Shown here one piece after another: positions 6,855 through 53,633 of a stretch of DNA of 64,000 nt. Position 1 is the first letter of the stretch; the number at the start of each line of letters is the position of its first letter. The position numbers were made by a program, and so were the translations under genes. The notes beneath the pieces are model-generated. The model saw only the letters and a list, made by a program, of their open reading frames with translations. It was not told the DNA's origin and made no database searches. Source of the DNA: Bacteroidota bacterium (GTDB lineage: Bacteria; Bacteroidota; Rhodothermia; Rhodothermales; JAHQVL01); the NCBI GenBank assembly GCA_039111535.1, contig JBCCIM010000001.1, forward strand, positions 25,959 to 89,958. The letters are read 5' to 3'.

Positions 6855-6890
6855 AACAAGAACTGGTAACTGGAAATGTGGTGGATGCGA

Positions 6891-9536: not shown

Positions 9537-9591
9537 ATAAGTGCTAGCCCGAAAACTATCAGCCTAGCACTTAAAGCGGAGTTTTGTTTCC

Positions 9592-11078: not shown

Positions 11079-11748
11079 ATTAAAACAGGTGATGAGACCC
11101 TTCGTTTTGAAACCTACCGGTATCCCTTCAACCCTTACCTTGCGCAGTTTAACCGACCTCAATTCGCCTTCACTCGGGCAACGCAGCAATCACTTTCCTT
11201 ACCGCACAACCTTCCCTTTTTTGGATACCGGTCTACACACCGCAAAGACCTTCCACCCAAGCGCCACAACGCAACCAACCTCTTTATTGCCGCCCATGCG
11301 TTACGTGTTAGCGGGCATTAAGCGCTGTTTTAAAATGGAATGGGCCTGGCCAGTATCATCCTCGTTCCAAAACAGACACCCTCAAATACCTCCAAAAACG
11401 CCGTTTTACGGTAACCGTTACCAATTAAGCTACAGCAAAAGGGTCGCGAAAGGGGCTTTCAGGGCTGTTTGGATTTGAGCCGGCAGTTGTCTCAAATGCC
11501 GGCTTACGATAACGCGCATGTGATAGCGTACATCGAAACTGTGACGTTTCGGCCGGCGAAAACCAGGCACGTTGACCAAAGGCAACGGATCTTCAACTGT
11601 TTGGATTTATCCATTGCAAACCATAAGACCCACGACACCTGTCCGCGTCAATTTTTGTGACCAAAAATTGCCAGGTCATGGGGGCATGCAGCTGTTTGGA
11701 TTTCAGTCTGTTTGGATTTGAAGGTAACTGGTTTTGTAACCGATCACA

Positions 11749-13617: not shown

Positions 13618-13752
13618 AATCAGAAAGTCCTGGCACTCAGATGGTCGATTTCAACAGGCCGTTTACAGATGGATCGATGTGAATCGGCCTCTTAAAAGGA
13701 TCGGCTGAGGTACCCGGATCTATAGCCCTGTACCATAGGAATTCGCCCTCCC

Positions 13753-15132: not shown

Positions 15133-15155
15133 ACGCGTTTGGGTTTGTCCGCTGT

Positions 15156-28555: not shown

Positions 28556-30334
28556 TTAGGGGGTGAAGACTATGGTTTGGCGGATTGTCTCATTACCGGC
28601 TTGGAATAAGGTAACGTAAACGCCGGCTGGTACTTTTATGCCGGCTGTGTTTCTTCCATCCCAGGCTAGCGTGTACCTGCCGGGGGCCTGGGCGCCTGTA
28701 TTGATACGCCGTACCTGTTGGCCCAGTTGATTATAGATTGCTACACTTACCACGGCTTCTTTTTCCAGCTGGTAGTCGAAGGTTGTTTGTGTACTGAAAG
28801 GATTGGGATAGAGCGCATTCAGGCTAAACGCAGTGGGCTGTGTTTCTTCCTCCACTGCCGTGGCTGTTGAAATGTTATCAAAAAGGAAAATGCGGTCAGC
28901 AAGTTCATCGATGGCGGTGATATCGAGGTCACCGTCGTTATCGCGGTCGTGCAGGATCGTACAGGAGGCTGCGGTTGTGGCCGGCAGCGTGAGCCGGTGG
29001 ATGTAAGCACCGTCGCCGGTATTTTCCAGTACCGTGTAGTCGTTGCTGGAGAAGTTGCTGGTAACCAGATCGAGATCACCATCGCCATCCAAATCTCCCA
29101 AATCTAGCGCCAACGGGAAAACGCCGGTTTCATAGTTTGCAGCCTCTTGCAGCGTCCCGTCTCCGTTACCAAGGACTACAGAAACTGTGGCATTGCCTGT
29201 ATTAGACGAAACCACATCGGCAAATCCGTCGCCATTCACGTCGCCGGCGGCCAGCATCCACGGGCGTGCCCCTACCGATACTTTTTCGGAAAACACGACA
29301 TTGCCCTGTCCGTCACCCAGGTACAAAAGCAGTTCATTGCCGGTGTAGGTGCCTATAAAAACATCCAGGATGCCATCGTTGTTTGCATCCGCCGAAGCGC
29401 AAGCCGTTTCGCCAGAACTTCCCGTTTCGATGTTAACTGGCGCAGTAAATGAGCCACTGCCGTTGTTGCGCAGCAGCGATATTGTGCCGGTACCCCGGAC
29501 GCCGCTTCTGTTGGTAGTCACAATATCCATCATCGTGTCGCCATCCAGGTCGAGGGTACAAAGGCCGCGTACTTCAGTGTCTGCTTGCGCATTTTGTTCG
29601 TGACTAACCGAGCCATTTGCCTGCCCCATCCACACACTAATTTTATCGCTTTGGGTGTTGCCAACAGCAAAGTCAATCATCCCATCGCGGTTGAAATCCG
29701 AACCCTCAATCGGGCTGGGGGTGTCGCCTTCCGGGATTGGATACACATCAAAATCACTGTAGCCGCCGGCGCCATCGTTTAGAAATATGCGTATGTCATT
29801 GACGTCTTCGTTGGGAATCATGAGGTCGCTGTACCCGTCCCGGTTCAGGTCGCCGGCATACGCACCGTATGAACGGACACGCCCTTCATTAGCAAAGCGA
29901 GTAGAGATATCGTCTATCTGAGAGAAATCAAAGCCAGCTGGCGCAGATCGGGTCCAAAAATTCCAGGTGTAGCCGTGGGCCATTGGTTCGCCAGCCATGC
30001 TCTGGATGCTGCGGGCCAGAGACACCGTTACCCATTCGCCGGCCATAAACGGTTTGTTCGGCACAAACCGAAGCACAGTATTATCGCTTTCCAGCGAGAT
30101 TGCCCCCTCCCGCACACCAGACCATCGCCCAAACACAAAAATGGCAGATGCATCAACCGAGATGGGGTCTACAGGGAGATCAAATGTAAGCATAAGCTCA
30201 GTAGTCGCGGCTGCTGTAACAGTTTGCGATGCCGGAAACAAAGAAGTAACAGTCGGGGCCTGTCCGAGTGCCAGCGGCGTGCACAGCATGACATAAATAG
30301 GAATCACCCAGCCCAGTGCATATTTTTTTCTCAT
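28556..30334 (-). CDS. FG-GAP/VCBS repeat protein with T9SS C-terminal sorting domain
   Basis: Signal peptide and an N-terminal Ig-like domain. Seven D-x-[DN]-x-DG-x-x-D loops (GDLNRDGYSD ... HDRDNDGDLD). C-terminal ALYPNPFSTQTTF..VAIYNQLGQQV..AGVY type-A CTD. Confidence 0.9.
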   Translation of the reverse strand: MRKKYALGWVIPIYVMLCTPLALGQAPTVTSLFPASQTVTAAATTELMLTFDLPVDPISVDASAIFVFGRWSGVREGAISLESDNTVLRFVPNKPFMAGEWVTVSLARSIQSMAGEPMAHGYTWNFWTRSAPAGFDFSQIDDISTRFANEGRVRSYGAYAGDLNRDGYSDLMIPNEDVNDIRIFLNDGAGGYSDFDVYPIPEGDTPSPIEGSDFNRDGMIDFAVGNTQSDKISVWMGQANGSVSHEQNAQADTEVRGLCTLDLDGDTMMDIVTTNRSGVRGTGTISLLRNNGSGSFTAPVNIETGSSGETACASADANNDGILDVFIGTYTGNELLLYLGDGQGNVVFSEKVSVGARPWMLAAGDVNGDGFADVVSSNTGNATVSVVLGNGDGTLQEAANYETGVFPLALDLGDLDGDGDLDLVTSNFSSNDYTVLENTGDGAYIHRLTLPATTAASCTILHDRDNDGDLDITAIDELADRIFLFDNISTATAVEEETQPTAFSLNALYPNPFSTQTTFDYQLEKEAVVSVAIYNQLGQQVRRINTGAQAPGRYTLAWDGRNTAGIKVPAGVYVTLFQAGNETIRQTIVFTP

Positions 30335-31599: not shown

Positions 31600-31661
31600 A
31601 TGAATGCCGATTGTCGAATGCCGATTGTCGAGTGGTTGTTGGTTAACGCAGTACCATCTCC

Positions 31662-31694
31662 ACACGTCATGCCGGACTTGATCCGGTATCCAGA
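31662..31694 (+). repeat. REP-like hairpin element, intergenic copy
   Basis: ACACGTCATGCCGGACTTGATCCGGTATCCAGA (CCGGA/TCCGG stem). Identical over 33 nt to the in-CDS copies at 38362 and 40652. Confidence 0.9.
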
Positions 31695-31743
31695 TAGGAT
31701 TGCCGCGTTTCGAGTGGGTGAGGAATGGTACCATTCTTCGCCG

Positions 31744-31774
31744 ATGTCATCCTGAGCCGTGCGAAGGATCTCTG
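31744..31774 (+). repeat. GTCATCCTGAGC-family REP, copy A
   Basis: ATGTCATCCTGAGCCGTGCGAAGGATCTCTG, 31 nt identical to 31842-31872. Confidence 0.9.
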
Positions 31775-31841
31775 CGGGACTTGCAGGCCCTTGATTGCTG
31801 AATGCGGATTGGTGATTGCAGAATGTTGATCTGTTTCAACC

Positions 31842-31872
31842 ATGTCATCCTGAGCCGTGCGAAGGATCTCTG
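31842..31872 (+). repeat. GTCATCCTGAGC-family REP, copy B
   Basis: 31-nt direct repeat of 31744-31774, 98 nt downstream. Confidence 0.9.
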
Positions 31873-31989
31873 GCAGCATGGCACATGTATCCTGGGGAAG
31901 CGCGTCGAACAATTATACATCAACTAACTGCAACAACACGAATCGAAATCCCGAAAAAACGAGAGCACATAATCACGAGTACCTCGATC

Positions 31990-32571
31990 ATGAACAGAAT
32001 GAAAACTACTTCTTGTTTGGCACTGCTTGCTTTGTTGTTTATCGCCATCCCCGTGAGCGCGCAGGAGGTTGATTTTGATGTGCCGACTGAAATCAACATT
32101 ATCCAGGGCCGGCTTTCGGTAGTCTTTAATGAAGGCATCGGCGCGGCAGATGCAGAGGTGTTAATGAAGAGCCTGGGCTACCCCATCTTACAAAAACACT
32201 TTTATGAATGGACTTCGCGGGCACACGCAGACCAAATGCTTACCGAAGAAGAGGTGCGGGATATCAAAGCACAAGCCGGTGTGGTGAATGTATCCCAAAC
32301 GGCCCTCGACAATGTACATTCAACAAACGCACCCGACGATTCTGGCTCCCTCGGCTACCTGGTGATTGTTACTTTTGCAAGCCACATTACGCGCCAAGCA
32401 GCAGCCGATATCCTCGAGCCGTTTTCAGCATTCGATTTCACCGCTGTTGCCTCACCGCCAAACGAAGTGATTATCGAGGTGGGCGACAAAGATGATGTAG
32501 CCATGGCTGTGCTGCAAAACCAGGAGCAAGTGCGGTGGGTGACTTACGTGGGTATCGGAAGCGGCGGCTAA
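31990..32571 (+). CDS. Hypothetical secreted protein
   Basis: Start chosen at MNRMKTTSCLALLALLFIAIPVSAQE (signal peptide). The longer ORF from 31816 would read through REP repeats. No domain recognised. Confidence 0.65.
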   Translation: MNRMKTTSCLALLALLFIAIPVSAQEVDFDVPTEINIIQGRLSVVFNEGIGAADAEVLMKSLGYPILQKHFYEWTSRAHADQMLTEEEVRDIKAQAGVVNVSQTALDNVHSTNAPDDSGSLGYLVIVTFASHITRQAAADILEPFSAFDFTAVASPPNEVIIEVGDKDDVAMAVLQNQEQVRWVTYVGIGSGG

Positions 32572-32581
32572 ATATATTCAC

Positions 32582-35473
32582 CTAGACGCCGGCGCACTGA
32601 GTACGTAACTGTTGTACACCGGCAAGTTTCGGGTGTGAGGTGGACAGGTACCGATAGATGCTGGTTGCTTCATCAAGGAGCTTCAATGCCTCCGCACATT
32701 GCCTTTGCGTAACGCGCAATGTACCAATTCCGGTTAAGGTTCGGGCCAGCGTTGAATTTGTTGAGGCCAGCTTTTCGCGCTGTAGTTCGAGTGCAAGAAG
32801 ATACAACGAGTCGGCTGCGGGTGCGTCCCCTAATGCGTCCTGAATACTGGCATGTACAGCCCAGGCAGCCCCCCAACGTGGGTGCCCGGTATCAAGTCCT
32901 ATTTCATAGGCGTTTAGTGCTTTGTTAGAAAACGCAAGCGCTTCATCAGGCTGATTTCTCGCTAATAAAATACGCGCCTTCCAGCTGAAACTTGCGGCTG
33001 TTGAACGATGCTCGTTCCCGACCAGCTTCATCAACATTGCAGTCGCACGATCCGAATACGCAAGCGCCAATTCTGTTTTTCCTTGCTCGAGAAGCGCCTG
33101 ACCTAGATAATCCAGGTTAAGGGCAATATAGACGTGTTCTTCGCCAAGCGTTTTTCTATCGATTTCCATCACACTCCGATACATGCGCTCCGCCCCCGCA
33201 TAATCGCCGTATACCATACGCAGTCGGGCCATGTTGTACATGGTACTGCCTACACGGGAGTCCACCTCGCCAAAGATTACTTTTTGGATTTCCAAAGCCG
33301 TTGCAAACAACGAATCTGCCTCCAGATAGGCCCCCAGCGATTGTTTAGCAACCGCTTTGCGTACCATTACAGAAGCCGATTCGGCATGATTAAAACCATA
33401 ATTATGGATATAGACCTCTAGCGCCTCGCCAAAGAGCGAGTCAGCAATTTCATATTCAGCCTGATCGAGTTTTTGTGCGCCCAGATTGGCGAGACTGAGC
33501 GCAAAGTGTGGATGTTGCTCCCCGAGCGTAACGCGCCGACTTTCTAACACTTCGGTATACAGCGACTCAGCTAGTTGAACATTATCGGTGGCTGAGTACA
33601 TGGTGGCCAGGTTGTTCTGCAAAGTCAGTACGTCGGAATGATTCGGATCATCATATTCCTCATCATAAATGGCCAGGGCTTCATTGTAGTACGATATGGC
33701 AGTATCGTATGCTGCTCGGTCATTATGAAGGATCCCTAAACCAAGCGCGCTTTCTGCCACATCCAGATGTTTTGGTCCAAACAGCCGAACCCGCATATCG
33801 TAAGATCGGCGATACAAAGAATCAGCTTCGTCAAATTCCTCTGTAAGTCGCTTCAGCCAGGCAAGGTTGTACAAACTTGTGGCAATATCGGGATGATCAG
33901 GGCCATTCACTTCCTCGCGGACCTTTAACGCCTGAAACAGTAGCGAATCTGCTTTTTCAAAACTGCCTAATTCTCTATAAACCCTTCCCAAGGTGGCCAA
34001 CATTTCACCCTTTACCTCTGGTTGATCCTGCAGCTCCTCATTGATGCGCCCTACGCCCTGATCGAGTAATTCTCGAACCTGTATGGAATCACCTTGCGCC
34101 TGTAACATGGGGTTAGATGCTTCAAACAAGCTGATGGTGAACTCCTTTACACGGTCTGCTTTTGCCGCTTCGCTGGCAGCTTCTCTCGCCTGCCACAGGG
34201 TAGTAAACAAGCCGGCAAAAAGGCTCATTACCAACAGTGATGCCAACGCCACAGCACTCCGATGCCGGCGCACAAACTTACCTGCCCGGTACCCAAACGT
34301 ATCCGAACGGGCAAGCACGGGTAACCCTTCGAGGTGACGCCGAATATCTTCAAAAAATGCCTCCGCTGATGCATAGCGGCGATCGGGCTCTTTGCGCAGG
34401 GCCTTGAGCACAATCGTATCCAGGTCGCCGGCCAACCGCCGCTGCAAACGGTCTGGGTGTGTACTTCGCTGCTGACTCACAGTGACGGGGTCCGTGCCCG
34501 TCTTGTCCTGGACGGCTACAGAAGGCCGGCTTGGTGCTGATGCCGCGATTGCCTCGCTGATGTGTTTGGGTGACGCGTTATCCGCTACAAACGGCCGACG
34601 ACCAACAAGCAGTTCATACAAAACCACGCCCAGCGCATACACATCCGTGGCCGTGGTTACGGGTTCGCCGCTGAATTGCTCGGGTGCAGCGTATTCCGGC
34701 GTCATCGGGGTACTGCCCATCTGAGTTAACGTTTGCCCGGGTGTGGTATCGGGAGTGAGGAGTTTGGCGATCCCGAAGTCGAGCAGCTTGAGCTCGTCAG
34801 CCGAGGTTACAAGCATGTTGGACGGCTTGAGGTCGCGGTGTACCGTCAGATTTTGATGCGCGTACTGCACTGCCTTGCATACGTGCTGAAAAAGCTGGAG
34901 CCGGGCGTCGATATCGAGTGTATGCTCGTTGCAATACTTGATCAGTGACGTGCCGGCAACGTATTCCATAACGATGTAGGGCCGACCGGCTTCGTCTACG
35001 CCGCCATCAAGCAACCGGGAAATGTTGGGGTGCCGCAGCTGTGCAAGGATTTGCCGCTCACGCAAAAACCGCTCGCGCACCTGTGCCGTATCGATGCCCT
35101 GCTTCATGAGCTTGAGTGCTACCTGCTGCTCAAACTGCCCATCGGCCCGTTCAGCAAGGTAGACGACGCCCATGCCACCACGACCAATTTCTCGTATGAG
35201 TTGGTAAGAGCCAACCCGGGTGCCGGCTTCAGCTATGGAGCCCTGATGAGTTTCCTGCAACAGCACGGCGGCATTCGATCCGTCTATAACATCCAGATAA
35301 CTGGCAGCTTTTTCATGAGCCTCGCAGAGTGCTTCTACATGGGCACGCAAGTGGGGCTGCGTTTCACACGCGTTTTCCAAAAAGACAGCGCGTTCCACTC
35401 CAGACAAAGTGATGGCCTCGGCAAACAAGGCTTCGATTTGTTGCCAGTGCTGGCGTTCAAACTCGCTTTTCAT
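32582..35473 (-). CDS. Ser/Thr protein kinase with one TM helix and a large TPR array
   Basis: Hanks motifs GRGGMGVVY, VALK, HRDLKPSN, DFG and APE. TM helix AVALASLLVMSLFAGLFTTLW, followed by ~540 aa of TPR-like repeats. Confidence 0.93.
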   Translation of the reverse strand: MKSEFERQHWQQIEALFAEAITLSGVERAVFLENACETQPHLRAHVEALCEAHEKAASYLDVIDGSNAAVLLQETHQGSIAEAGTRVGSYQLIREIGRGGMGVVYLAERADGQFEQQVALKLMKQGIDTAQVRERFLRERQILAQLRHPNISRLLDGGVDEAGRPYIVMEYVAGTSLIKYCNEHTLDIDARLQLFQHVCKAVQYAHQNLTVHRDLKPSNMLVTSADELKLLDFGIAKLLTPDTTPGQTLTQMGSTPMTPEYAAPEQFSGEPVTTATDVYALGVVLYELLVGRRPFVADNASPKHISEAIAASAPSRPSVAVQDKTGTDPVTVSQQRSTHPDRLQRRLAGDLDTIVLKALRKEPDRRYASAEAFFEDIRRHLEGLPVLARSDTFGYRAGKFVRRHRSAVALASLLVMSLFAGLFTTLWQAREAASEAAKADRVKEFTISLFEASNPMLQAQGDSIQVRELLDQGVGRINEELQDQPEVKGEMLATLGRVYRELGSFEKADSLLFQALKVREEVNGPDHPDIATSLYNLAWLKRLTEEFDEADSLYRRSYDMRVRLFGPKHLDVAESALGLGILHNDRAAYDTAISYYNEALAIYDEEYDDPNHSDVLTLQNNLATMYSATDNVQLAESLYTEVLESRRVTLGEQHPHFALSLANLGAQKLDQAEYEIADSLFGEALEVYIHNYGFNHAESASVMVRKAVAKQSLGAYLEADSLFATALEIQKVIFGEVDSRVGSTMYNMARLRMVYGDYAGAERMYRSVMEIDRKTLGEEHVYIALNLDYLGQALLEQGKTELALAYSDRATAMLMKLVGNEHRSTAASFSWKARILLARNQPDEALAFSNKALNAYEIGLDTGHPRWGAAWAVHASIQDALGDAPAADSLYLLALELQREKLASTNSTLARTLTGIGTLRVTQRQCAEALKLLDEATSIYRYLSTSHPKLAGVQQLRTQCAGV

Positions 35474-35561
35474 AGACGTTATGTGAGATACCTGACAGTC
35501 GACACGTCTTAATCTGCGTTTTTAACAGAAAAAAACTGACAGACAGTAGATGGTACTTGAC

Positions 35562-36131
35562 TTACTGTTCTTCCAACTGGATAAACAACCACGCCTTAGC
35601 CAACTGCCAGTCGCGCAAAGCGGTACGCTCAGAAATTTCCAGCACCTGGGCGATTTCGTCCATTTTCAACCCACCAAAAAACCGGCACTCAACCACTTTC
35701 GCCTGACGCGGACTGCGGTCGGCTAACAATTGCAAGGCTTCATCAAGATCCACGAGATGAGAGGCAAATGCCTCTACCGCGATGTGTTGTTCATCCAGCG
35801 ACAACGCGCGTTCTTTGCCGCCCCGTTTGAGCCGGGTGCGACGGCGCGCGTGGTCTACCAGGATTTGCCGCATAGCCCGGGCAGCAGCACCGAAAAAATA
35901 CGCACGGCCTTTTGCAGTCACCTGGGTTTGATCCACCAGCTTCAGATAAGCTTCGTGTACCAGCGCGGTGGTGTTGAGCGTGTGGTGTTGGCGCTCCTGT
36001 AAGAGGTATTTATGCGCCATACCCCGCAGTTCGTCATACACCGCGCTAACCACGGCATCAGCGTTCACGCTTGCATCCACAGATACGCGATTGAGCAAGA
36101 CGGTCACAGCCTGGGAAGTCGTGCCGGCCAT
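35562..36131 (-). CDS. ECF sigma factor (PF07638/TIGR02999-like)
   Basis: Start chosen at MAGTTSQAVTVLL. HTLNTTALVHEAYLKLVDQ is the signature of this ECF type. Region 4 HTH is MDEIAQVLEISERTALRDWQLAKAWL. Confidence 0.9.
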   Translation of the reverse strand: MAGTTSQAVTVLLNRVSVDASVNADAVVSAVYDELRGMAHKYLLQERQHHTLNTTALVHEAYLKLVDQTQVTAKGRAYFFGAAARAMRQILVDHARRRTRLKRGGKERALSLDEQHIAVEAFASHLVDLDEALQLLADRSPRQAKVVECRFFGGLKMDEIAQVLEISERTALRDWQLAKAWLFIQLEEQ

Positions 36132-36402
36132 TTGTACAGGAGTGGGGTGAAGATAATAATGACAGCGCGCTGCCAAAACAGCATATGTAGTATAGCAACT
36201 TTTAAGGCCAATCTCGACCAAGTGACGCTACCCTCCATTTTCCTCACATCAGGTGGTGTTTAGAAAAAACTGACTGGGCATGGCAGTTTTTCTGAAGGAC
36301 TGTCGCAGGACAAAACACAGGCGCATCGTACAGCTCGTCAGCAGTGCATCTCAGCCTCGGTTACATGCGCCGGCTATTACGCTCACATAAACCCACAACA
36401 CC

Positions 36403-38658
36403 ATGCGAACCACACTTTTCCTCACGCTTCTCTGTTTGCTCGTACAGCCAGTTTTTGGTCAGCAATATGGGCATCACCTGGACTGGCTCAATGCAGTCAC
36501 AGATGACACATTCATCAACGACGTAGCCCTCGACGCAGACGAATTAGTTTATATCGTTGGGTCTGGCCTTGACAATATAGATTTTGACGGACCAACGATA
36601 ACAGGACAGGGCGGAGAGGCTTCCGTCGATGGTGCTACGATGTTCTTTGCTGCCTATTCCCCTGATGGTCAACTGGTCATGTCGCGCATAATCTCAGCCA
36701 GCATTTTTAGCGAAGGATACGGCATAGCCATTGGCAAATCGGGTGATATTTATGTAGCCGGCATCGTGCGGGGTATTGCTGATTTTGATGGCCCCAATAG
36801 TACCGATAAGGGAGGAGAGGTCCTCACCGAAAAACCCGAGCTTTTCATTGCCCGATACACCGCATCCAACAACCTGGTATGGGTAACAACAACAAATACC
36901 TTTGAAGGAGATGGCTTTCAGTATCCGGACGCATCTGACTACGAGGACCGCATCAAACTTGAAGTCAGTCTGCAGGGAAATGTCTACGTGTCCGCTGAGT
37001 ATTTGCAGGAAGGGCCTGTCGACTTTGACGGCCCCCACACTAAAGGACAAGGGGGAGAGATCCATCTGAATATCGATTCATTTGTCGCCAAGTATGACGC
37101 GCAAGGTGCCCTGTTGTGGGTCAATCATATTCTGACTGAGACCGCCTATTCAGGAATTGTTGACCTGGACGTTAATCATAACGATGAGGTCTTCATTGTC
37201 GGAGGCTTTGATGCGCGCATCGATCTGGATGGCCTTGAAACCAATGCGCAGGGAGGCGAACTGATCACGCCCCAGCACAAAATGTTTTTGGCCAAATATG
37301 ATGTGAATGGCATCTTGCAATGGGCAACAACACCAACCGGTGCATCAACAAAAGGATTTGGCGTCGAGATAACGCCTAAAGGGAATATTTATGCCGCCGG
37401 CAATTTTAAAGGCAGCGTAGATTTTGACGGCCCCTTTACAACAGGACAAGGAGGAGAACTGGTATCAACCGGGGCATACAGAGACTATTTTCTTGCCCGG
37501 TATCAACCAAACGGGGTACTGGATTGGGTCAACCTGATCGATACAAAATCCACGTGTTGTGATGAAAGCCGCGGCCCAGATATAGCAACAGGATTTTCCG
37601 GGGTGTACGCGATCGGACAATTTGAGCGTGAAGTTGATTTTGATGGCCCTAAAGCACACGGTGATGGCAGCAGATTTTTTATCCCGGACGCCCAAAGCTC
37701 GTTTATTGCCAAGTACAACCATGCCGGCGACTTCTTATGGGCCAAACCAGGTACAAGTGCCGGCAATTATAGCAGAGCCTCTTCCATTTCGGTGTTTGGG
37801 TCAGATGAGCACATCGCCATGACTGGACATTTTGTAGAAAGCTTCTCATTCGAAGGATCTACGATTACAGGTACACCGGGTGCCCCCCAATTCTGGGATT
37901 ATTTTGTTGCCAAACTCAATCCCAACGTTTTTGGTCAGGCACCACAACCGCCTTATTCAATAAAGCCTTTTACCTTCTTCGAAGCTGAGTCCCACGTCTT
38001 CATCCACCCCGAAGACATCGTTGCCAGCCTGGTTGATTCACAAGGTGATGAGATGCCCGTCGAATCAGCTATCTTCACCGCCGTCACAGCAGACGAAGAA
38101 CTCCAACACGAGTTGCTCATCGACGGCTGCCAGTTCCTCGGCCTGCCGGCTTTGCTTGATGAAGAAACCAACGGCCACGTCTACACCATCCACATGGCAG
38201 CGACCGACCGCTACGGCGTAACCGGTGAATGGCAGGTGCCGGTACACATCATACGCGAAGGCATGGAAGAAGCTGAGCAAGACGAGACTGTGTTTGAGGC
38301 CGTCGTCTGCTCAGAAAACGAAACCGGCCAGGCCCAAAGCAGCAAGGACCAGCTACACCTTACACGTCATGCCGGACTTGATCCGGTATCCAGAAAAGAG
38401 CCAACACTCACCGCCTACCCAAACCCATTCAATCCACAGACAACCCTGTCGCTATCGCTCCCAGTCGCCCAGCACGTCCGCGTCGCAGTCTACGACATGC
38501 TGGGCCGGCAGGTAGCGCTCATCCACGACGGATTGCTGGATGCCAACCAATCCCACAGCTTCACCTTCGATGCCGCGAAGCTCCCAAGCGGCGCTTATCT
38601 GGTGCGGGTGCAGGGTGAGGGCTTTGTCCAGAGCCGGCGCATCAGCCTGGTGAAGTAA
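36403..38658 (+). CDS. T9SS-secreted seven-bladed beta-propeller repeat protein, paralog 1
   Basis: Signal peptide, then seven blades (..VY..G...DFDGP..TGQGGE....F.AKY...G.L.W), an acidic ~115-aa domain, and the YPNPFNPQTT..VAVYDMLGRQV..SGAYLV CTD. Confidence 0.9.
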   Translation: MRTTLFLTLLCLLVQPVFGQQYGHHLDWLNAVTDDTFINDVALDADELVYIVGSGLDNIDFDGPTITGQGGEASVDGATMFFAAYSPDGQLVMSRIISASIFSEGYGIAIGKSGDIYVAGIVRGIADFDGPNSTDKGGEVLTEKPELFIARYTASNNLVWVTTTNTFEGDGFQYPDASDYEDRIKLEVSLQGNVYVSAEYLQEGPVDFDGPHTKGQGGEIHLNIDSFVAKYDAQGALLWVNHILTETAYSGIVDLDVNHNDEVFIVGGFDARIDLDGLETNAQGGELITPQHKMFLAKYDVNGILQWATTPTGASTKGFGVEITPKGNIYAAGNFKGSVDFDGPFTTGQGGELVSTGAYRDYFLARYQPNGVLDWVNLIDTKSTCCDESRGPDIATGFSGVYAIGQFEREVDFDGPKAHGDGSRFFIPDAQSSFIAKYNHAGDFLWAKPGTSAGNYSRASSISVFGSDEHIAMTGHFVESFSFEGSTITGTPGAPQFWDYFVAKLNPNVFGQAPQPPYSIKPFTFFEAESHVFIHPEDIVASLVDSQGDEMPVESAIFTAVTADEELQHELLIDGCQFLGLPALLDEETNGHVYTIHMAATDRYGVTGEWQVPVHIIREGMEEAEQDETVFEAVVCSENETGQAQSSKDQLHLTRHAGLDPVSRKEPTLTAYPNPFNPQTTLSLSLPVAQHVRVAVYDMLGRQVALIHDGLLDANQSHSFTFDAAKLPSGAYLVRVQGEGFVQSRRISLVK

Positions 38659-38712
38659 GCCTCCTCACTCCTAACTCACTACTGAAAACCATACCATCAT
38701 GAAATACCTACG
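37981..38712 (+). repeat. Conserved 3' cassette, copy 1 (C-terminal module + spacer + next start)
   Basis: Aligns by eye at roughly 90% nt identity with 40271-41006 and 42508-43185. Similarity continues through the stop, the spacer and ATGAAATACCTACG. Confidence 0.9.
38362..38394 (+). repeat. REP-like hairpin element embedded in-frame in paralog 1
   Basis: Same 33-mer as the intergenic copy at 31662-31694. It is translated as TRHAGLDPVSR. Confidence 0.9.
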
Positions 38713-40948
38713 CCCTATTCTTGCTACTACTTTACTTTTTGTCCTGGTAGAGTCGGCTACAGCCCAGCAATTTGGTCATCACCTTGATTGGCTTAAAGGG
38801 CCTTTAGATAATGTCACTATTCGCGAGAGTGTCATTGGAATGGATGAATCAGTTTACATATGGGGATCAGGCAAAGGAGCGATTGACCTTGATGGCCCTG
38901 CCAGTTCAGGACAAGGTGGTGAACAGTTCTTAACCGAATGGAAAACCATCTTGGCTAAATATGACAAACATGGAAAATTGACATGGTTCAAGATCATCTA
39001 CCATACGGCTGACTTATGGCATTTAAACGGCGTACACAGTATGGCTATCGGGCCACACGGTGATCTTTATCTCGTTGGAAAAGGAGAGGATTCCTTTGAC
39101 TTTGATGGGCCGAATATAACAGGCCAAGGGGGTGAAATCTACTTTGAAAGGGATGAAATATTCATTGCTAAATACAATGCACAGGGTTGGCTCTCATGGG
39201 TCATACAAACCACATCAACCGAAGGAATTGGCGTCGATAATAGTAAAAACCTAAAAATCCAAACAGGTCCATACGATGACGTCTTTGTTTTCGGAGGACT
39301 GGGAAAAGGTACCGTTGATTTCGATGGCACCACGAAAACCGGCCAGGGAGGTGAATTAACAATTCCAACAGGCGGTTTCTATACATTTCTAGCAAAATAC
39401 AATGGGATTAGCGCACTGCAATGGGTCAAGCGCATTCGAATAAACGATCTCTTTAACTATCAAGAATTAAGCGTTAGCAACAATAATGAACCGTTCATTG
39501 CAAGTAAACAATCAGGACCGATAGACCTGGATGGTCCACACATAACTGGCCAAGGTGGTGAAATGATCTTAGACTACGATCAACTGATATTGGCGAAGTT
39601 TGATACTTATGGCAGTTTTTTGTGGGCCCGAAAAACCGCTTCATCCTCAGGATTTGTTAATGTACTTAGTGTTGACGCAAGTCCAGATGGAGCGGTATAT
39701 GTAGTAGCAGATATCTTAGAATGGATAGATTTTGACGGCCCCTTAACGACCGGCCAAGGCGGTGAAATCCAGGGTGGAGAAGACTTTGCTGACATCTGGA
39801 CCTATTCTATCCTCGCCAGATACGAGGCAGATGGGACGTTCGGTTGGGTTAAGTTAATAAAATTAAATTTGGGTGACAGCATACCATCTATTCAAGCAGG
39901 CAGCTCAGGTGTTTACATAGCAGGGGATTTTCGTGAAACCATGGATCTTGACGGCCCAGATCTAGACCATCCAGGTAGTAGTGCAACCACTAGCATAGGG
40001 ACCTCCAGCGCATTTGTAGCCAAATATCTACACGATGGATCCTTCAATTGGGCCATGGTAGGTTCTGAAATGAGCACCTCCCGTTCGCTGGCGCTTACCG
40101 AACCCACAGAACACCTAGTATACAATGGTATTTTTAAAAACAGCTTCTTGTTTGAAGGATCAACGGTGGGTAGTCAAGACGACAATTGGGAACAGTTTAT
40201 CGCAAAAATAGACCCTACCACATTAGTAGGCCCTGGCCCACCTTACAGCCTTACCCCAATCCCACTCTACGAAGCTGAATCCCACGTCTTCATCCACCCC
40301 GAAGACATCGTTGCCAGCCTGGTTGATTCACAAGGTGATGAGATGCCTGTCGAATCAGCCATCTTCACCGCCGTCACCGCTGACGAAGAACTGGAAGACG
40401 AGCTGCTCATGGATGGCTGCCAGTTCCTCGGCCTGCCGGCTTTGCTTGATGAAGAAACCAACGGCCGCGTCTACACCATCCATATGGCTGTGACTGATCG
40501 CTATGGTGAAATCGGCGAGTGGCAAGTGCCGGTACACATCATACGCGAAGGCATGGAAGAAGCTGAGCAGGACGAGACAGCTTTCGAAGCAGTTGTCTGC
40601 TCAGAAAACGAAACCGGCAAAGCCCAAAGCAAAGACGATCAACTCAACCTTACACGTCATGCCGGACTTGATCCGGTATCCAGAAAAGAGCCAGCGCTCA
40701 CCGCCTACCCGAATCCGTTCAATCCACAGACAACCGTGTCGCTATCGCTCCCATCCACCCAGCACGTCCGCGTGGCGGTCTACGACATGCTCGGCCGGCA
40801 GGTAGCGCTCATCCACAACGGGATGCTGGATGCCAACCAATCCCACAGCTTCACTTTTGATGCCGCAAAGCTCCGAAGCGGCGCTTACCTGGTGCGTGTG
40901 CAAGGTGAGAGCTTTGTCCAGAGCCGGCGCATCAGCCTCGTGAAGTAA
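38699..40948 (+). CDS. T9SS-secreted seven-bladed beta-propeller repeat protein, paralog 2
   Basis: Same architecture as paralog 1. The N-terminal 520 aa are strongly diverged and AT-richer, while the C-terminal 226 aa are nearly identical. Confidence 0.9.
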   Translation: MKYLRPILATTLLFVLVESATAQQFGHHLDWLKGPLDNVTIRESVIGMDESVYIWGSGKGAIDLDGPASSGQGGEQFLTEWKTILAKYDKHGKLTWFKIIYHTADLWHLNGVHSMAIGPHGDLYLVGKGEDSFDFDGPNITGQGGEIYFERDEIFIAKYNAQGWLSWVIQTTSTEGIGVDNSKNLKIQTGPYDDVFVFGGLGKGTVDFDGTTKTGQGGELTIPTGGFYTFLAKYNGISALQWVKRIRINDLFNYQELSVSNNNEPFIASKQSGPIDLDGPHITGQGGEMILDYDQLILAKFDTYGSFLWARKTASSSGFVNVLSVDASPDGAVYVVADILEWIDFDGPLTTGQGGEIQGGEDFADIWTYSILARYEADGTFGWVKLIKLNLGDSIPSIQAGSSGVYIAGDFRETMDLDGPDLDHPGSSATTSIGTSSAFVAKYLHDGSFNWAMVGSEMSTSRSLALTEPTEHLVYNGIFKNSFLFEGSTVGSQDDNWEQFIAKIDPTTLVGPGPPYSLTPIPLYEAESHVFIHPEDIVASLVDSQGDEMPVESAIFTAVTADEELEDELLMDGCQFLGLPALLDEETNGRVYTIHMAVTDRYGEIGEWQVPVHIIREGMEEAEQDETAFEAVVCSENETGKAQSKDDQLNLTRHAGLDPVSRKEPALTAYPNPFNPQTTVSLSLPSTQHVRVAVYDMLGRQVALIHNGMLDANQSHSFTFDAAKLRSGAYLVRVQGESFVQSRRISLVK

Positions 40949-41006
40949 GGCTCCTCACTCCTATCTCCTAACTCACTACTCAAAACACCATCATGAAATA
41001 CCTACG
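40271..41006 (+). repeat. Conserved 3' cassette, copy 2
   Basis: See 37981-38712. The spacer differs by a short indel. Confidence 0.9.
40652..40684 (+). repeat. REP-like hairpin element embedded in-frame in paralog 2
   Basis: Identical 33-mer ACACGTCATGCCGGACTTGATCCGGTATCCAGA. Confidence 0.9.
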
Positions 41007-43185
41007 TCTAGCTCTCACAATCGCCGTACTTTGTATCTGCGTTCCAGCTTCCGCACAATTCCCAACTGAATTACAATGGCTGTATGGCATAACAGGGGAC
41101 TATTACCCCAGGGACATGGTCATTAGTCCTGATGGGGATATTTACACGGTTGGCGTCATTTCTAGCGCGGCCGATTTGAACGGGCCGGCAATACCCGGAG
41201 GTGAAATACAGGTAAAAGGGACGCATCAAATGATCGTCAAATACAGCGCAAGCGGAGATATTCTGTGGACACGGCTGCTCAAGCAAGACGGATCGATTTA
41301 TATCAAGCTTGGCCCTGCGCAAGAAGTGTACTTGACTGGCACAGTTGCCGGCTGGATAGACCTGGATGGCCCCTCCCTCACAGGCCAGGGCGGAGAACGC
41401 TACATGGGCGAATCCCGAGCAATTTTTATCGCGCAGTACACATCAGACAATACATTCAACTGGGTAAAAAAGATAAACGCCCACTCAATTTACGGAAATG
41501 AGTTTGATGTCAGTCCGGATGGCAGCCTGTATCTAAGGGGACATTTCTGGGACGTCGTTGATTTTGACGGGCAGCTGAATACGGGCCAAGGTGGGGAGTT
41601 GTATGCAGATGACATGGGCTATTTTGTAGCCAAGTTTTCATCAAACGGATCATTTTTGTGGACCAAACAGATTGTACCCGAGACCAATGGCAGCTCGCAT
41701 GTAACCAAGGGTATTCGCGCCGGCACGAACAATGAACTCTATATCCTCTACCACTCAAGAGGTTATATAGATCTTGATGGCCCAACAATCACAGACCAGG
41801 GTGGGGAATGGGATGTACCGAGCGATGAGTTACTTCTCGCAAAATACGCTGCAACCGGTAACCTGGAATGGGTCACGCACACCGTGTCACCTAAAGGCAA
41901 TTTCTGGGTCGAAGATTTGGATGTTGGTCCTGATGGATATGTCTATGTTGCCGGGTCCGTACGAGGCCGTATTGATTTTGATGGCCCATACAAAACAGGA
42001 CAGGGCGGAGAGTTTACAGCCGTAGCGTTTAGCGATATGTTTATAGCAAAGTTTACGGCGCACGGAGATTTTGAAAGAGTAATCACAGCCACCGGCCCAG
42101 ACTTTGATCAAGCAAAGGACGTATCCGTAAGTGCCTCAGCTATTTACCTTACCGGATATTTTCAGGAAGCTATCGATTTTGATGGCCCCAACACCCAGGC
42201 GGCAGGTGGTGAAGTCACGGGACAAATACTGCAAAACCTGTTTCTGGTAAGCTATACCCACGACGGTGATTTCTTATGGGTCAAAACTTCAGAGGGAGGG
42301 TTTGGTGAAAATATCGGATACTACCTTGATGCCAACGAAAATGACCAGCTTGCCTTTTATGGTCATGTTATCGACCCGGCTTCTTTTGAAGGTGCTGAAA
42401 TCATAAACACCTTTCAGTTTATCTCCTTGCTCGACAAAGCCGGACTAACAGAATACGAAGAACCCACACCGCCTTATCATATCGACCCGGTTGTGTTTTA
42501 TGAAGTCGAAGCTGAATCCCACGTCTTCATCCACCCCGAAGACATCGTCACCAGTCTGGTTGATTCACAGGGCGGTGAAATGCCCGTCGAGTCCGCCATC
42601 TTCACCGCCGTCACAGCGGACGAGGAGTTGGAAGATGAACTACTCATGGACGGCTGCCAGTTCCTCGGCCTGCCAGCTTTGCTTGATGAAGAAACCAACG
42701 GCCGCGTCTACACCGTCCACATGGCAGCCACCGACCGCTACGGCGTAACTGGTGAATGGCAGGTCCCAGTACACATCATCCGCGAAGGCATGGAAGAAGC
42801 TGAGCAAGACGAGACAGCCTTCGAAGCCGTCGTCTGCTCAGAAAACGAAACCGGCCAGGCCCAAAGCAAAGACGATCAACTCAACCTGACACGTCATGCC
42901 GGACTTGATCCAGTATCCAGAAAAGAGCCGACGCTCACCGCCTACCCAAATCCATTTAACCCGCAGACAACCCTGTCGCTATCGCTCCCAGTCACCCAGC
43001 ACGTCCGCGTCGCCGTCTACGACATGCTCGGCCGGCAGGTAGCGCTCATCCACGACGGATTGCTGTATGCCAACCAATCCCACAGCTTCACCTTCGATGC
43101 CACAAAGCTCCCAAGCGGTGCTTATCTCGTGAGGGCGCAAGGCGAGGGTTTTGTCCAGAGCCGGCGCATTAGCCTGGTGAAGTAG
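40993..43185 (+). CDS. T9SS-secreted seven-bladed beta-propeller repeat protein, paralog 3
   Basis: Same architecture: signal peptide MKYLRLALTIAVLCICVPASAQ, seven blades, conserved cassette and CTD. Confidence 0.9.
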   Translation: MKYLRLALTIAVLCICVPASAQFPTELQWLYGITGDYYPRDMVISPDGDIYTVGVISSAADLNGPAIPGGEIQVKGTHQMIVKYSASGDILWTRLLKQDGSIYIKLGPAQEVYLTGTVAGWIDLDGPSLTGQGGERYMGESRAIFIAQYTSDNTFNWVKKINAHSIYGNEFDVSPDGSLYLRGHFWDVVDFDGQLNTGQGGELYADDMGYFVAKFSSNGSFLWTKQIVPETNGSSHVTKGIRAGTNNELYILYHSRGYIDLDGPTITDQGGEWDVPSDELLLAKYAATGNLEWVTHTVSPKGNFWVEDLDVGPDGYVYVAGSVRGRIDFDGPYKTGQGGEFTAVAFSDMFIAKFTAHGDFERVITATGPDFDQAKDVSVSASAIYLTGYFQEAIDFDGPNTQAAGGEVTGQILQNLFLVSYTHDGDFLWVKTSEGGFGENIGYYLDANENDQLAFYGHVIDPASFEGAEIINTFQFISLLDKAGLTEYEEPTPPYHIDPVVFYEVEAESHVFIHPEDIVTSLVDSQGGEMPVESAIFTAVTADEELEDELLMDGCQFLGLPALLDEETNGRVYTVHMAATDRYGVTGEWQVPVHIIREGMEEAEQDETAFEAVVCSENETGQAQSKDDQLNLTRHAGLDPVSRKEPTLTAYPNPFNPQTTLSLSLPVTQHVRVAVYDMLGRQVALIHDGLLYANQSHSFTFDATKLPSGAYLVRAQGEGFVQSRRISLVK
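42508..43185 (+). repeat. Conserved 3' cassette, copy 3
   Basis: See 37981-38712. Similarity ends at the stop codon, and the downstream sequence is unrelated. Confidence 0.9.
42889..42921 (+). repeat. REP-like hairpin element embedded in-frame in paralog 3
   Basis: Same element with one stem-breaking substitution (TCCAGT instead of TCCGGT). Confidence 0.85.
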
Positions 43186-43268
43186 CGCCGGCAAATCGTA
43201 TCTACAGTTTCTTTAGCGCGGATTCTCTATTTGGGGGCATCTATCCGTTCCACCGAACCTTAAACTCC

Positions 43269-43718
43269 ATGCGATTTCTGTCCATCTTGATTCTAGGCGG
43301 CGTACTCCTGACCGGTCTGCTTTTTTTCCAAATGAAGAAGTCTGAGACTGAAGCTGCCACCCTTGCTAAAGAAGTAGAAATGGAAATGTCAGCCCCCGAT
43401 ATGTCTGAAGCTGTACGCCATGTTGTTGTTTTCAAGTATAAACCCGAAGCCACCGAAGCACAGATCCAGGAAATCACTGATGCTTTTAAAGCACTGGAAG
43501 ACCAGATTCCCGGCATCATTGGTTTTGAGCATGGGGTAAACAACAGCCCGGAAGGGTTGAACCAGGACTTCACCCACGTGTACCTGATGACCTTCGAAAA
43601 CGAAGAAGCCCGCGACACCTACCTGCCCCACCCCAAACATGCCGCCTTTGGCGAGATCCTGATGGGGTCGGGGATTTTTGATGGTGCGTTTGTGGTGGAC
43701 TATACGATTGCAGACTAA
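43269..43718 (+). CDS. Dabb (stress-responsive A/B-barrel) domain protein with N-terminal signal/anchor
   Basis: TM/signal segment MRFLSILILGGVLLTGLLFF, then a Dabb core VRHVVVFKYKPEAT...FTHVYLMTFENEEARDTYLPHPKH. Confidence 0.85.
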   Translation: MRFLSILILGGVLLTGLLFFQMKKSETEAATLAKEVEMEMSAPDMSEAVRHVVVFKYKPEATEAQIQEITDAFKALEDQIPGIIGFEHGVNNSPEGLNQDFTHVYLMTFENEEARDTYLPHPKHAAFGEILMGSGIFDGAFVVDYTIAD

Positions 43719-43721
43719 GGC

Positions 43722-43744
43722 AAACGAACCGGATCGGTTCGTTT
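43722..43744 (+). terminator. Strong hairpin directly after the Dabb stop
   Basis: AAACGAACCG-GAT-CGGTTCGTTT (10-bp stem) followed by ATTGTCGATTTTCG. It is the first convincing hairpin downstream of the paralog array. Confidence 0.6.
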
Positions 43745-43746
43745 AT

Positions 43747-43892
43747 TGTCGATTTTCGATTGCCGAGTGTCGATTTATGTTTTTCATTTAAAACAATCGG
43801 CATTCGGCATTCCTTTCTGGATACCGGATCAAGTCCGGCATGACGTGATAAAGAAGCTATGCGTTAGCCCCAAAGCCAATCGAAAATCGACA
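43747..43892. repeat. MITE-like composite repeat bounded by 16-bp perfect inverted repeats
   Basis: TGTCGATTTTCGATTG (43747-43762) is the exact reverse complement of CAATCGAAAATCGACA (43877-43892). The interior carries a GAATGCCGA module and a REP hairpin copy. Confidence 0.6.
43816..43847 (-). repeat. REP-like hairpin element, intergenic copy in reverse orientation
   Basis: Reverse complement reads CACGTCATGCCGGACTTGATCCGGTATCCAGA. Confidence 0.9.
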
Positions 43893-43914
43893 TTCGAAAA
43901 TCGAAAATCCTCCC

Positions 43915-50492: not shown

Positions 50493-50674
50493 CAAGTGCA
50501 TATCCCCTGTACACAAAACGGACTACAGGCTATCAGGCAATCGTTTGCTTTTATAAAGTAAGACGAAGCTTGCACTTCCAACGCCATTCCAATTGGTCCA
50601 TTTGTTTCCCTTTCATTGACGACACGCTTACCCTGCTCGACGTGAGTGTGCCCAATTTTTGATGCCCTTACAAC

Positions 50675-52249
50675 ATGGAGCTATCGGCAGACGCGGTATG
50701 GCAAGAGTGCCTGCAAATCATCCGTGACAACATTAGCAGGCAGAGCTTCAAAACCTGGTTTGAGCCACTCACGGCTGAGAAACTGGTTGAAGAAGACGAC
50801 GAGACAAGGCTTACGGTAAAATTGCCCAGCAGATTTTATTACGAGTGGCTCGAAGAGCATTACTTTGGTCTGTTAAGCAAAACCATTATGAAAGTGCTGG
50901 GTCCCCAGGGCCGGCTCTTCTATAATATTGTCATTGAAAAAGATGACACCGAGAGCGGCTACGAAGGATCGTCTATGCACCTGCCCTCTCGCAAGCCGGC
51001 CAACGAGCAACCCCCGGTGCAACGACATCATGGTACCCCCCCAGTCGGTCAGCAGCCCTCCGGACAGCAATGGCAACCGCATACGCAGCGCAACATTCCC
51101 CCGGAACCTCCGCGCCCGCATTACAACAACCAGGGGTTTGCACACCAGGCGCCCCCCGCACCACAGTCTCCATTTGCCAATCCATTTGTGATCCCTGGCC
51201 TTAAGCCGGCCAAAATCGAGCACAACCTCAATACGTCTTATACTTTTGATCGCTTCATTGAAGGCGATTGTAATCGCCTTGCACGGAGTGCTTCGCTCGC
51301 CATTGCACAGCAGCCTGGTGCAACCAGCTTCAATCCTTTCCTTATTTATGGCGGCGTGGGGCTCGGCAAAACGCACATGATCCAGGCCATTGGTAACCAT
51401 GTACTGGCCAACAACAGCAACCAAACGGTCCTGTATATTTCAAGCGAGCGCTTTACCACTGAATTTGTGCAAGCAATTCAGAACAACCGGGTCAGTGATT
51501 TTTCGATGTTTTATCGGCAAATCGACTTGCTGATCGTGGATGACGTGCAATTTTTTGGGGGCAAAGAAAAAACCCAGGAAGAGTTCTTCCACATTTTCAA
51601 CAGCCTGCACCAGGCTGGCAAACAGATTATTCTTTCAGCAGATCGTCCGCCAAGAGACATCTCTGGAATTGAAGAACGGCTGCTGTCCCGTTTCCAATGG
51701 GGCCTCACCGCAGATGTACAGGCACCTGAGTTTGAAACGCGCATTGCAATCCTGCAACGCCAGGCTGAAGATGATGGCATTCGGATTTCGCGTGATGTAA
51801 TCGAATTTGTTGCGCATCACATCAAGAGCAACATCAGAGAGCTCGAAGGCGCCCTGATTCGGCTACTGGCACATGCAACGCTGCACAAGCGGGAGATTGA
51901 TCTCAACATGGCCAAAGAGGTACTGCGCGACCTGATCAAGGATACGCGCGTCAACCTCACCATCGACGAGATTCAGCGGATCGCCTGTGAGTACTTCAAC
52001 ATCCCAGAAGACCTTGTTCGTGGTAAAACCCGCAAGCGCGAAGTTGTACAGGCCAGACAGGTAGCCATGTACTTCTCCAAACAGCTCACGCAGCATTCGC
52101 TGAAAACAATCGGACTGCATTTTGGCGGACGCGACCACTCTACCGTGATCCATGCCAACCAAAGCGTAGAAGATCAAATCGACACAGATCCAAAGTTTTC
52201 TGATACAATTGAGGAAATTCGGCAGCGGCTCGAACTCCGTAGTCGCTAA
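50675..52249 (+). CDS. dnaA: Chromosomal replication initiator DnaA
   Basis: 524 aa. N-terminal WQECLQIIRDNISRQSFKTWF, a Pro/Gln-rich linker, AAA+ Walker A GGVGLGKTH, and C-terminal DNA-binding GGRDHSTVIHA. Confidence 0.97.
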   Translation: MELSADAVWQECLQIIRDNISRQSFKTWFEPLTAEKLVEEDDETRLTVKLPSRFYYEWLEEHYFGLLSKTIMKVLGPQGRLFYNIVIEKDDTESGYEGSSMHLPSRKPANEQPPVQRHHGTPPVGQQPSGQQWQPHTQRNIPPEPPRPHYNNQGFAHQAPPAPQSPFANPFVIPGLKPAKIEHNLNTSYTFDRFIEGDCNRLARSASLAIAQQPGATSFNPFLIYGGVGLGKTHMIQAIGNHVLANNSNQTVLYISSERFTTEFVQAIQNNRVSDFSMFYRQIDLLIVDDVQFFGGKEKTQEEFFHIFNSLHQAGKQIILSADRPPRDISGIEERLLSRFQWGLTADVQAPEFETRIAILQRQAEDDGIRISRDVIEFVAHHIKSNIRELEGALIRLLAHATLHKREIDLNMAKEVLRDLIKDTRVNLTIDEIQRIACEYFNIPEDLVRGKTRKREVVQARQVAMYFSKQLTQHSLKTIGLHFGGRDHSTVIHANQSVEDQIDTDPKFSDTIEEIRQRLELRSR

Positions 52250-52481
52250 AGAAGTCGATTTAAAAAACTTGGACCTAAAATTTTTACGCTCAAAAATTTG
52301 CAGTAAAGTATTGTTTAAGCGAACTTTACTGCTACCATTTAATTAAAGAGTGGCTATAATAAGATCAGCCTGAATCGATGCTGGTCCTCACTTCTTGTTG
52401 TTTGCTTCGGGTTTCTGCACATACAACCCACGTAGCCCACAACCGGAAACCCGTAACCCAAAACTTGATCTGGTCAAATCC

Positions 52482-53612: not shown

Positions 53613-53633
53613 ACCCGAGACTTTCGTCAGCTT

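Follow-up and report, generated by a model that had tools for sequence, protein, structure and literature searches.

The DNA analysed here, a stretch of 64,000 nucleotides referred to as the window, comes from a metagenome-assembled genome deposited at NCBI, the nearest relatives of which, as traced through a neighbouring DEAD-box helicase, are Rhodothermales. It contains a minus-strand pair of genes for an extracytoplasmic function (ECF) sigma factor and a Hanks-type Ser/Thr receptor kinase, from which plus-strand genes for secreted β-propellers with type IX secretion system (T9SS) sorting domains diverge. The sigma gene (35562-36131, 189 aa, with TTG at 36221 as an alternative upstream start) is followed, after a spacer of 88 nt (35474-35561), by the kinase gene (32582-35473, 963 aa), and a divergent intergenic region of 271 bp (36132-36402) separates it from the first of three propeller genes (propeller 1, 36403-38658, 751 aa; propeller 2, 38699-40948, 749 aa; propeller 3, 40993-43185, 730 aa), behind which lies a gene for a Dabb protein (43269-43718, 149 aa). 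The gaps on the plus strand measure 40, 44 and 83 nt, the first two being the only ones within the propeller array. An earlier note on this DNA, made from the sequence alone, had given these gene positions and gaps, and the list of open reading frames (ORFs) with its translations reproduces all of them; likewise, profile matches agree with the domains it had assigned, i.e., a PF07638 sigma, Pkinase and tetratricopeptide repeats (TPRs) in the kinase, a T9SS C-terminal domain (CTD) on each propeller, and Dabb.

The sigma factor is, as judged from its profile matches, the kinase gene adjoining its own and the Thr patch described below, of the kinase-associated, ECF43-like type. It scores far above the cut-offs of both PF07638 (E 4e-52, 177 bits, Pfam cut-off 21) and TIGR02999 (201 bits, NCBIfam cut-off 126). 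The ECF43 group is defined by an adjacent Hanks-type kinase, the lack of an anti-sigma factor and a Thr-containing patch that replaces the acidic DAED in region sigma-2.2 (PMC8999054, PMC13147305); in EcfP from Vibrio the patch reads STTA, with the second Thr being phosphorylated, and the ECF43 consensus is QTTA (PMC8999054, PMC13147305). Residues 50-61 of the present sigma read HTL-NTTA-LVHEA, with NTTA (N53-T54-T55-A56, codons 35964-35975 of the minus strand) standing in the place of DAED. The same patch is found in 10 of 88 relatives, in which QPTA (31), QTTA (14) and STTA (4) also occur. Other kinase-linked groups, namely ECF59-62, 217, 267 and 283 (PMC7826278), are further candidates for the group to which the sigma belongs. 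Species-representative genomes contain at least 597 related sigmas, distributed over Acidobacteriota, Rhodothermales, Gemmatimonadota, Planctomycetota and others. The closest sigmas are those of loci L004 and L141 (57-62% identity among these two and the window), and in 49 of 78 related loci the kinase gene lies immediately 3' of the sigma gene. A search against PDB sequences returned no match. The placement of this sigma in the kinase-linked ECF class by the earlier note was correct, and can now be sharpened to the ECF43 hallmark NTTA in conjunction with a PknS-like kinase.

The kinase (minus strand) was characterized by Pfam matches, motifs, hydropathy and comparison with solved structures. 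An N-terminal extension (aa 1-89) precedes the kinase domain (aa 90-369; Pkinase E 2e-48), which is followed by a transmembrane (TM) helix (aa ~405-427) and ~500 aa of TPRs, with TPR_12 and TPR_10 matches from aa ~490 on. The catalytic motifs are complete (GRGGMG 97, VALK 118, HRDLKPSN 212, DFG 232, APE 263) and the hydropathy profile exhibits a single hydrophobic peak at aa ~405-427; HRDLKPSN, DFG, APE and one TM helix had already been read from the letters. Since this lone helix separates the TPRs from the kinase domain, the TPR part is predicted to be extracytoplasmic. The best match among solved structures is PDB 9EED (E 1e-59, 205 bits; PknB scores ~140 bits), which represents PknS(1-364) of Xanthomonas citri (PMC13147305). 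Residues 9-381 of the kinase align to PknS residues 8-363, and the alignment, as it begins at residue 9, therefore takes in the N-terminal extension, which is conserved among the Xanthomonadaceae PknS homologues (PMC13147305) and detectable in the kinases of 34 loci of our set, the window included. A scan of species-representative genomes found no close relatives of the kinase, and the family is very large, with all 8000 scored candidates passing E 1e-20.

Propeller 1 comprises a signal peptide, a seven-bladed SBBP-type propeller (aa ~25-510), a middle domain (aa ~520-640), a linker and a T9SS type A CTD, and profiles and alignment assign the same architecture to propellers 2 and 3. Each of the three proteins starts with a signal peptide, each head contains seven repeat units, and the CTD (Por_Secre_tail/PF18962, TIGR04183) is above the cut-off in all of them (35-40 bits versus 27 in Pfam; 38-42 versus 23 in NCBIfam). 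PF06739 (SBBP) has no match to the propellers at E 0.01 in Pfam, and the NCBIfam SBBP/LipL53 match is sub-threshold (28-40 bits, cut-off 400). A homologue search yielded 404 proteins at E <=1e-5, mostly annotated with PF06739 and PF18962 and 24-33% identical, and an alignment of 64 sequences displays a shared SBBP blade consensus (DFD..G...L.S.G..D.F.AKYD..G...W), of which the D[FL]DGP..TGQGGE motif of the propellers is a variant limited to the three paralogues, the homologues P0003 and P0004, and a gene of genome L140. In the AlphaFold model of propeller 1 (mean predicted local distance difference test score 79), the propeller blocks score mostly 80-97 and the CTD ~97, while the middle domain is low; the high-confidence span covers aa 30-510, and its best fold match in the PDB is the CylK propeller (E 1e-17). 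Taken from sequence and model together, the cargo is best described as a set of three seven-bladed propellers that are diverged members of the SBBP family and bear type A T9SS sorting domains, so that the view that its family matches no described system has to be given up. The propellers share the blade consensus and the seven-bladed fold with Bacteroidota SBBP (PF06739) proteins carrying a T9SS CTD, and differ from them in the D[FL]DGP..TGQGGE blade, the sub-threshold Pfam SBBP score, the additional middle domain and a linker apparently derived from a repetitive extragenic palindromic (REP)-like element. As an observation in its own right, the middle domain (motif [TG]NG[RH]VYT) recurs together with a T9SS CTD, and without a propeller, in ~50 unrelated metagenome proteins (L086-L135); it matches no Pfam family and may represent an undescribed domain of T9SS cargo.

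The three paralogues are mosaics. Their heads share 35-41% protein and 46-52% DNA identity, with third codon positions being saturated, and over the last 224 residues protein identity rises to 91-93% and DNA identity to 88-90%, without frameshifts, the boundary at EAESHVF being sharp. This pattern suggests gene conversion of a constant tail, consisting of middle domain and CTD, underneath diverging heads. The linker TRHAGLDPVSRK between middle domain and CTD is encoded by a REP-like hairpin repeat, CACGTCATGCCGGACTTGATCCGGTATCCAGA, which is present in frame once per propeller gene (plus strand, 38363-38397, 40653-40687 and 42890-42924); in P0003 the linker is shorter and lacks TRHAGLDPVSRK. 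The same CACGTCATGCCGGACTTGATCCGGTATCCAGA repeat lies between genes at either end of the locus (31663-31694 and, inverted, 43816-43847) and in L136 (12158-12193, 20264-20298). It thus looks, from the sequences, as if the propeller linker were an intergenic repeat captured into coding sequence. The in-gene copies form an 8-bp hairpin in every propeller gene, so that, contrary to what had been stated before, the array is not free of hairpins upstream of 43722-43744; they lack a T-run and are not terminator-like. The strong hairpin 3' of the Dabb gene (43722-43744, plus strand) does fold as predicted (10-bp stem, -14.9 kcal/mol, z -2.9), and is probably the terminator of that gene.

The most informative comparison is with the nearest genomes, which were found through the DEAD-box helicase (91% identical to that of the window in L136, 83% in L140, i.e., assembly GCA_024449835.1, and 79% in L139). 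When the closest available one, L136 (on a 608-kb contig), was compared with the window by blastn, it proved to be collinear on both flanks at 80-88% DNA identity and to lack a block of 10,551 bp (32636-43186), with L136 positions 8728/8730 (reverse complement) joining window positions 32635 and 43187. The block contains the kinase gene minus its last 17 codons and stop (32582-32635, minus strand, which correspond to intergenic sequence in L136), the sigma gene and propellers 1-3, and no further gene; the junction falls at kinase residue 945/946, and the stop codon of propeller 3 ends one base before the right junction. Since the closest genome is devoid of exactly these five genes, they have been gained or lost together. 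Beside the sigma gene stands the gene for a Hanks-type kinase, and the block contains no anti-sigma gene, consistent with the absence claimed before: 10.55 kb has room for the five genes only. As a separate observation, two similar short strings, GGTGTGAG and GGTGAAGTAG, each near CCGGCAA, flank the indel (window 32582-32635; L136 12812-12860). The inverted REP-like repeats (31602-31716 and 43791-43847) were considered as a mobile-element cause of the indel and rejected, since both copies are located beyond the junctions and occur in L136 as well.

The Dabb gene, which had been counted as the fourth member of the target array, has to be removed from it. The protein (Dabb profile E 1e-25, signal-anchored, plus strand) has a 95% identical orthologue in L136, directly 3' of a gene for a 230-aa protein and without the block in between, and it adjoins the helicase in L139 and L140 as well. 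As it stays in L136 when the block is absent, Dabb belongs to the chromosomal backbone and lies outside the module. The left flank is likewise backbone: a small secreted protein of the 230-aa family is encoded convergently with the kinase (31990-32571, plus strand, the start at 31990 being read from the sequence), and the same succession of small-secreted-protein gene and Dabb gene is found in L139. The product of the ORF 31816-32571 is 82% identical to its L136 counterpart (L136_230) and 35-36% identical to L139_199 and L137_191, and has no match in Pfam.

The direction of the event can be argued both ways. Loss in L136 is favoured by a DFDGP-type propeller-middle-CTD gene directly upstream of Dabb in L140 and by the lack of a compositional anomaly in the block; gain in the lineage of the window is favoured by the kinase, which lacks the 45-65 C-terminal residues of its homologues and has the junction at residue 945/946. 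In L139 and L140, the intergenic sequences have diverged too far to be aligned. The L140 propeller gene itself (5563-7226, minus strand) is interrupted by an in-frame stop, encodes the middle domain twice and runs off the end of the contig. In L137, a more distant relative, a pair of PF07638 sigma and TPR kinase (12826-16518; 31% and 34% identical to those of the window) is non-orthologous and not accompanied by propellers. Since this pair occupies the same helicase-to-sulfatase interval, the interval represents a plasticity zone, apparently a preferred site for modules of this kind and for rearrangement.

Based on these findings, we propose that the five genes constitute a self-contained module in which a receptor kinase, by phosphorylating the sigma factor, switches on the divergent propeller operon; we consider the chances of this proposal to be about even. 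The TPR receptor kinase would sense a periplasmic or envelope-associated cue and phosphorylate a Thr of the NTTA patch in the ECF43-like sigma that is its partner, which in its unphosphorylated form would not bind core RNA polymerase. Once activated, this sigma would transcribe the three-gene propeller operon from a promoter in the 271-bp region, for which TGTCGCAGGA (36301-36310) is a candidate element, and the three SBBP-type propellers, with their diverged heads and near-identical tails of middle domain and CTD, would be exported by the type IX system.

Such wiring had been thought to match no described system. This cannot be maintained, as there is a close precedent in which a TPR receptor kinase and an ECF43 sigma activate a type VI secretion system (T6SS) of the same region: PknS of Xanthomonas citri, a TM kinase with periplasmic TPRs, phosphorylates EcfK and thereby activates the T6SS encoded there (PMC13147305, PMC8999054). 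The window resembles PknS/EcfK in that (i) the genes for the sigma and a Hanks-type kinase are adjacent and an anti-sigma gene is lacking, (ii) the kinase domain is preceded by an N-terminal extension (~85 aa) and followed by one TM helix and predicted periplasmic TPRs, (iii) the sigma has a Thr patch in region 2.2, as EcfK does, and (iv) the presumed output, here deduced from the genes, is a nearby secretion-related cluster. It differs in that the kinase has ~500 aa of TPR (PknS has three TPRs) and a truncated C-terminus, in that the presumed targets are T9SS cargo proteins instead of a T6SS machine, and in that the host is Rhodothermales-like, i.e., of the Fibrobacteres-Chlorobi-Bacteroidetes (FCB) group, and not a gammaproteobacterium. 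A second likeness is to EcfP/PknT of Vibrio parahaemolyticus, where DAED is also replaced by xTTA (STTA in EcfP, NTTA here) and an adjacent Ser/Thr kinase replaces the anti-sigma factor (PMC8999054). EcfP controls a polymyxin-resistance regulon, and unlike at the present locus no cassette of secreted propellers has been described for it (PMC8999054). On the side of type IX secretion, the locus shares with another system of the same superphylum the link between an ECF sigma and the T9SS. In Porphyromonas gingivalis, the two-component system PorXY stabilizes the ECF sigma SigP, which targets genes of the T9SS machinery; in the window, by comparison, a Ser/Thr kinase would act as the switch, with cargo genes as its presumed targets.

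Two new lines of evidence connect the sigma/kinase pair with the propellers. The first is that the five genes are jointly present or absent, which suggests, without proving, control of the propellers by the pair. The second is a sequence element in the divergent region: TGTCGCAGGA (plus strand, 93-102 nt before the ATG of propeller 1) is a candidate promoter or operator element of this sigma subfamily, the first nine nucleotides of which (36301-36309) conform to TG[TA]CGCAGG. This 9-nt motif faces the cargo in the divergent regions of the window, L004 and L141, the very three loci with sigmas 57-62% identical to each other, and is absent from 86 other sigma upstream regions; its background frequency amounts to 0.007 per region, and the pattern was reached in 27 of 3000 dinucleotide shuffles (P ~0.01). 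The divergent layout, with gaps of 40 and 44 nt within the propeller array, and the secreted or T9SS surface proteins encoded divergently from the closest pairs speak for the link as well, and so does the position of the only two SBBP-profile matches among the 940 genes of 82 sigma loci, both directly after the kinase gene (strong in L074, weak in L002). We therefore regard the regulatory link as plausible, at about an even chance, backed as it is by the co-inheritance of the block and a modest motif signal and not by conserved synteny. Other candidate signals were rejected: GTACCGTA is present upstream of the L004 and L141 sigma genes and absent from the window; dyads common to the intergenic regions of window and L004 are noise only; no autoregulatory promoter dyad was found, the dyad signals of 88 upstream regions reflecting GC composition; and GTCAGTTTTTTTCT (GTCAG-T(6/7)-CT), found in the spacer 35474-35561 and, with one T fewer, upstream of the sigma gene at ~36264-36276, has a single exact copy in the window and is not above chance. 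A scan for sigma-70-type promoters and terminators gave counts at chance level, and no Rfam family was found in the 271-bp divergent region.

Several observations weigh against control of the propellers by the pair. The motif was found post hoc and is not followed on its 3' side by a consistent -10 element, and a promoter common to the whole group did not emerge either, since 5+4 dyads in the 88 sigma upstream regions yielded GC-composition signals only, no better than the reverse-complement control. Any contiguous genes would be expected to be deleted jointly, the sister genome L136 does without the block, and 13 of 15 aligned homologues extend ~40-65 residues beyond the end of the kinase. 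Furthermore, the neighbours upstream of 61 related sigma genes belong to 94 Pfam families, none of which occurs in more than four members and none of which is SBBP, and signal-peptide proteins are only weakly enriched there (45% versus 31%, P 0.03). No sigma/kinase pair adjoins P0003, the nearest propeller homologue with a readable context, and in L143 an AraC regulator and a peroxiredoxin diverge from the pair. A metagenome scan with the propeller alignment returned mostly proteins sharing only middle domain and CTD, and the lone full-length match, L085, lies near a canonical ECF/zf-HC2 anti-sigma pair and not near one of the ECF43 type. The recurrent association of sigma/TPR-kinase pairs with propeller genes that the earlier note had proposed for a comparative check is thus mostly not borne out (SBBP upstream of 0/61 sigmas, adjoining in 2/82 loci, and no pair at P0003), and its central claim, that a kinase/sigma switch drives the propellers, retains the indel block and the cargo-facing TG[TA]CGCAGG in its favour but lacks family-wide synteny.

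Under a second explanation, which we hold to be possible though on the doubtful side, adjacency is devoid of regulatory meaning: the pair would run a dispersed regulon, the propellers would be regulated separately, and five contiguous genes would have been deleted together in a rearrangement-prone stretch. The dispersed regulon of Vibrio EcfP/PknT offers a parallel (PMC8999054). The heterogeneity of the neighbours of related sigma genes, the sheer size of the family (at least 597 sigmas and 8000 kinase candidates past E 1e-20), the non-orthologous L137 pair located without propellers in the same variable region, the regulator and peroxiredoxin opposite the pair in L143 and the commonness of T9SS cargo nearby, as exemplified by an FG-GAP/CTD gene at 28556-30334, are all in line with it. 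What it leaves unaccounted for is that the boundaries of the block enclose exactly the pair and the propellers, that the cargo-facing motif is common to the three closest sigma loci, and that, opposite the closest relatives, arrays of surface proteins are met repeatedly. In fact, secreted or T9SS surface proteins diverge from the pair in L004, L141, L003, L007, L079 and L064, comprising a Kelch propeller, fibre-like Peptidase_S74 proteins and CTD proteins in L004 and L141, and T9SS cargo with FG-GAP propellers in L079 and L064. Among these, Peptidase_S74 (endosialidase chaperone) proteins recur divergently from the most similar pairs (L003 5966-9103, L004 2785-4671, L141 326-1462), which may indicate that such pairs commonly neighbour genes for fibre-like surface proteins.

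The shortened C-terminus of the kinase in the alignment with the 15 homologues might also be taken to indicate that the module is a decaying remnant whose signalling has perhaps been lost, and the absence of the whole block from L136 and the in-frame stop in the L140 propeller point the same way. Yet all five ORFs of the window are intact, the catalytic motifs of the kinase are complete and the propeller tails have kept 88-90% nucleotide identity without frameshifts, and we consider decay to be unlikely. We deem it very unlikely that the propellers are sensor partners of the kinase instead of, or besides, being its output, with exported propellers or periplasmic intermediates binding to the TPRs and providing feedback on the T9SS cargo load. 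The SBBP genes that directly adjoin the kinase gene in L074 and L002 could be read in this way; the cargo beside related pairs is, however, of many unrelated kinds.

If the proposed switch from kinase via sigma to propeller operon holds, the logic of PknS/EcfK would be extended from a T6SS machine to T9SS cargo, and the locus would suggest how bacteria of the FCB group bring portions of their very large T9SS surface proteomes under control. It is then tempting to speculate, albeit with low confidence, that kinase-gated ECF pairs in T9SS bacteria each serve as the dedicated switch of a small, exchangeable surface-protein cassette that is gained and lost as a whole. A modular unit of this kind would sense one cue and display chosen binders, the ligand-binding heads of which have diverged to saturation while the tail is kept by gene conversion. 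Acidobacteriota, Planctomycetota, Rhodothermales and related groups possess many kinase-activated sigmas, few of which have been characterized experimentally and the targets of which are mostly unknown. The locus in the window provides a compact experimental case, as it offers a clean five-gene block, three presumed outputs, a candidate promoter element and a sister genome representing a natural 'deletion mutant'.

Some further features of the locus and its relatives are recorded here. In L022 (Longimicrobiales, 2013-13519), two sigma and TPR-kinase pairs are arranged in tandem, with two signal-peptide genes on the opposite strand between them. Upstream of the small secreted-protein gene of the window, 31714-31774 and 31812-31872 are tandem repeat copies (77% identical over 61 nt) with the core GTCATCCTGAGCCGTGCGAAGGATCTCTG, which we take to resemble a widespread intergenic repeat that is frequently mistaken for short ORFs. 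The REP-like element in the interval between Dabb and the gene after it (43745-43909) is bracketed by inverted CGATTTTCGA-type repeats, including a perfect 16-nt pair (43747-43762 and 43877-43892), and similar GATTGTCGAATGCCGATTGTCGA units are present at 31602-31637. Finally, positions ~50600-53700 of the window are collinear with L136 genes bearing DnaA and DNA polymerase III beta Pfam matches; this collinearity puts the module ~7-10 kb from dnaA/dnaN and therefore probably near the replication origin.

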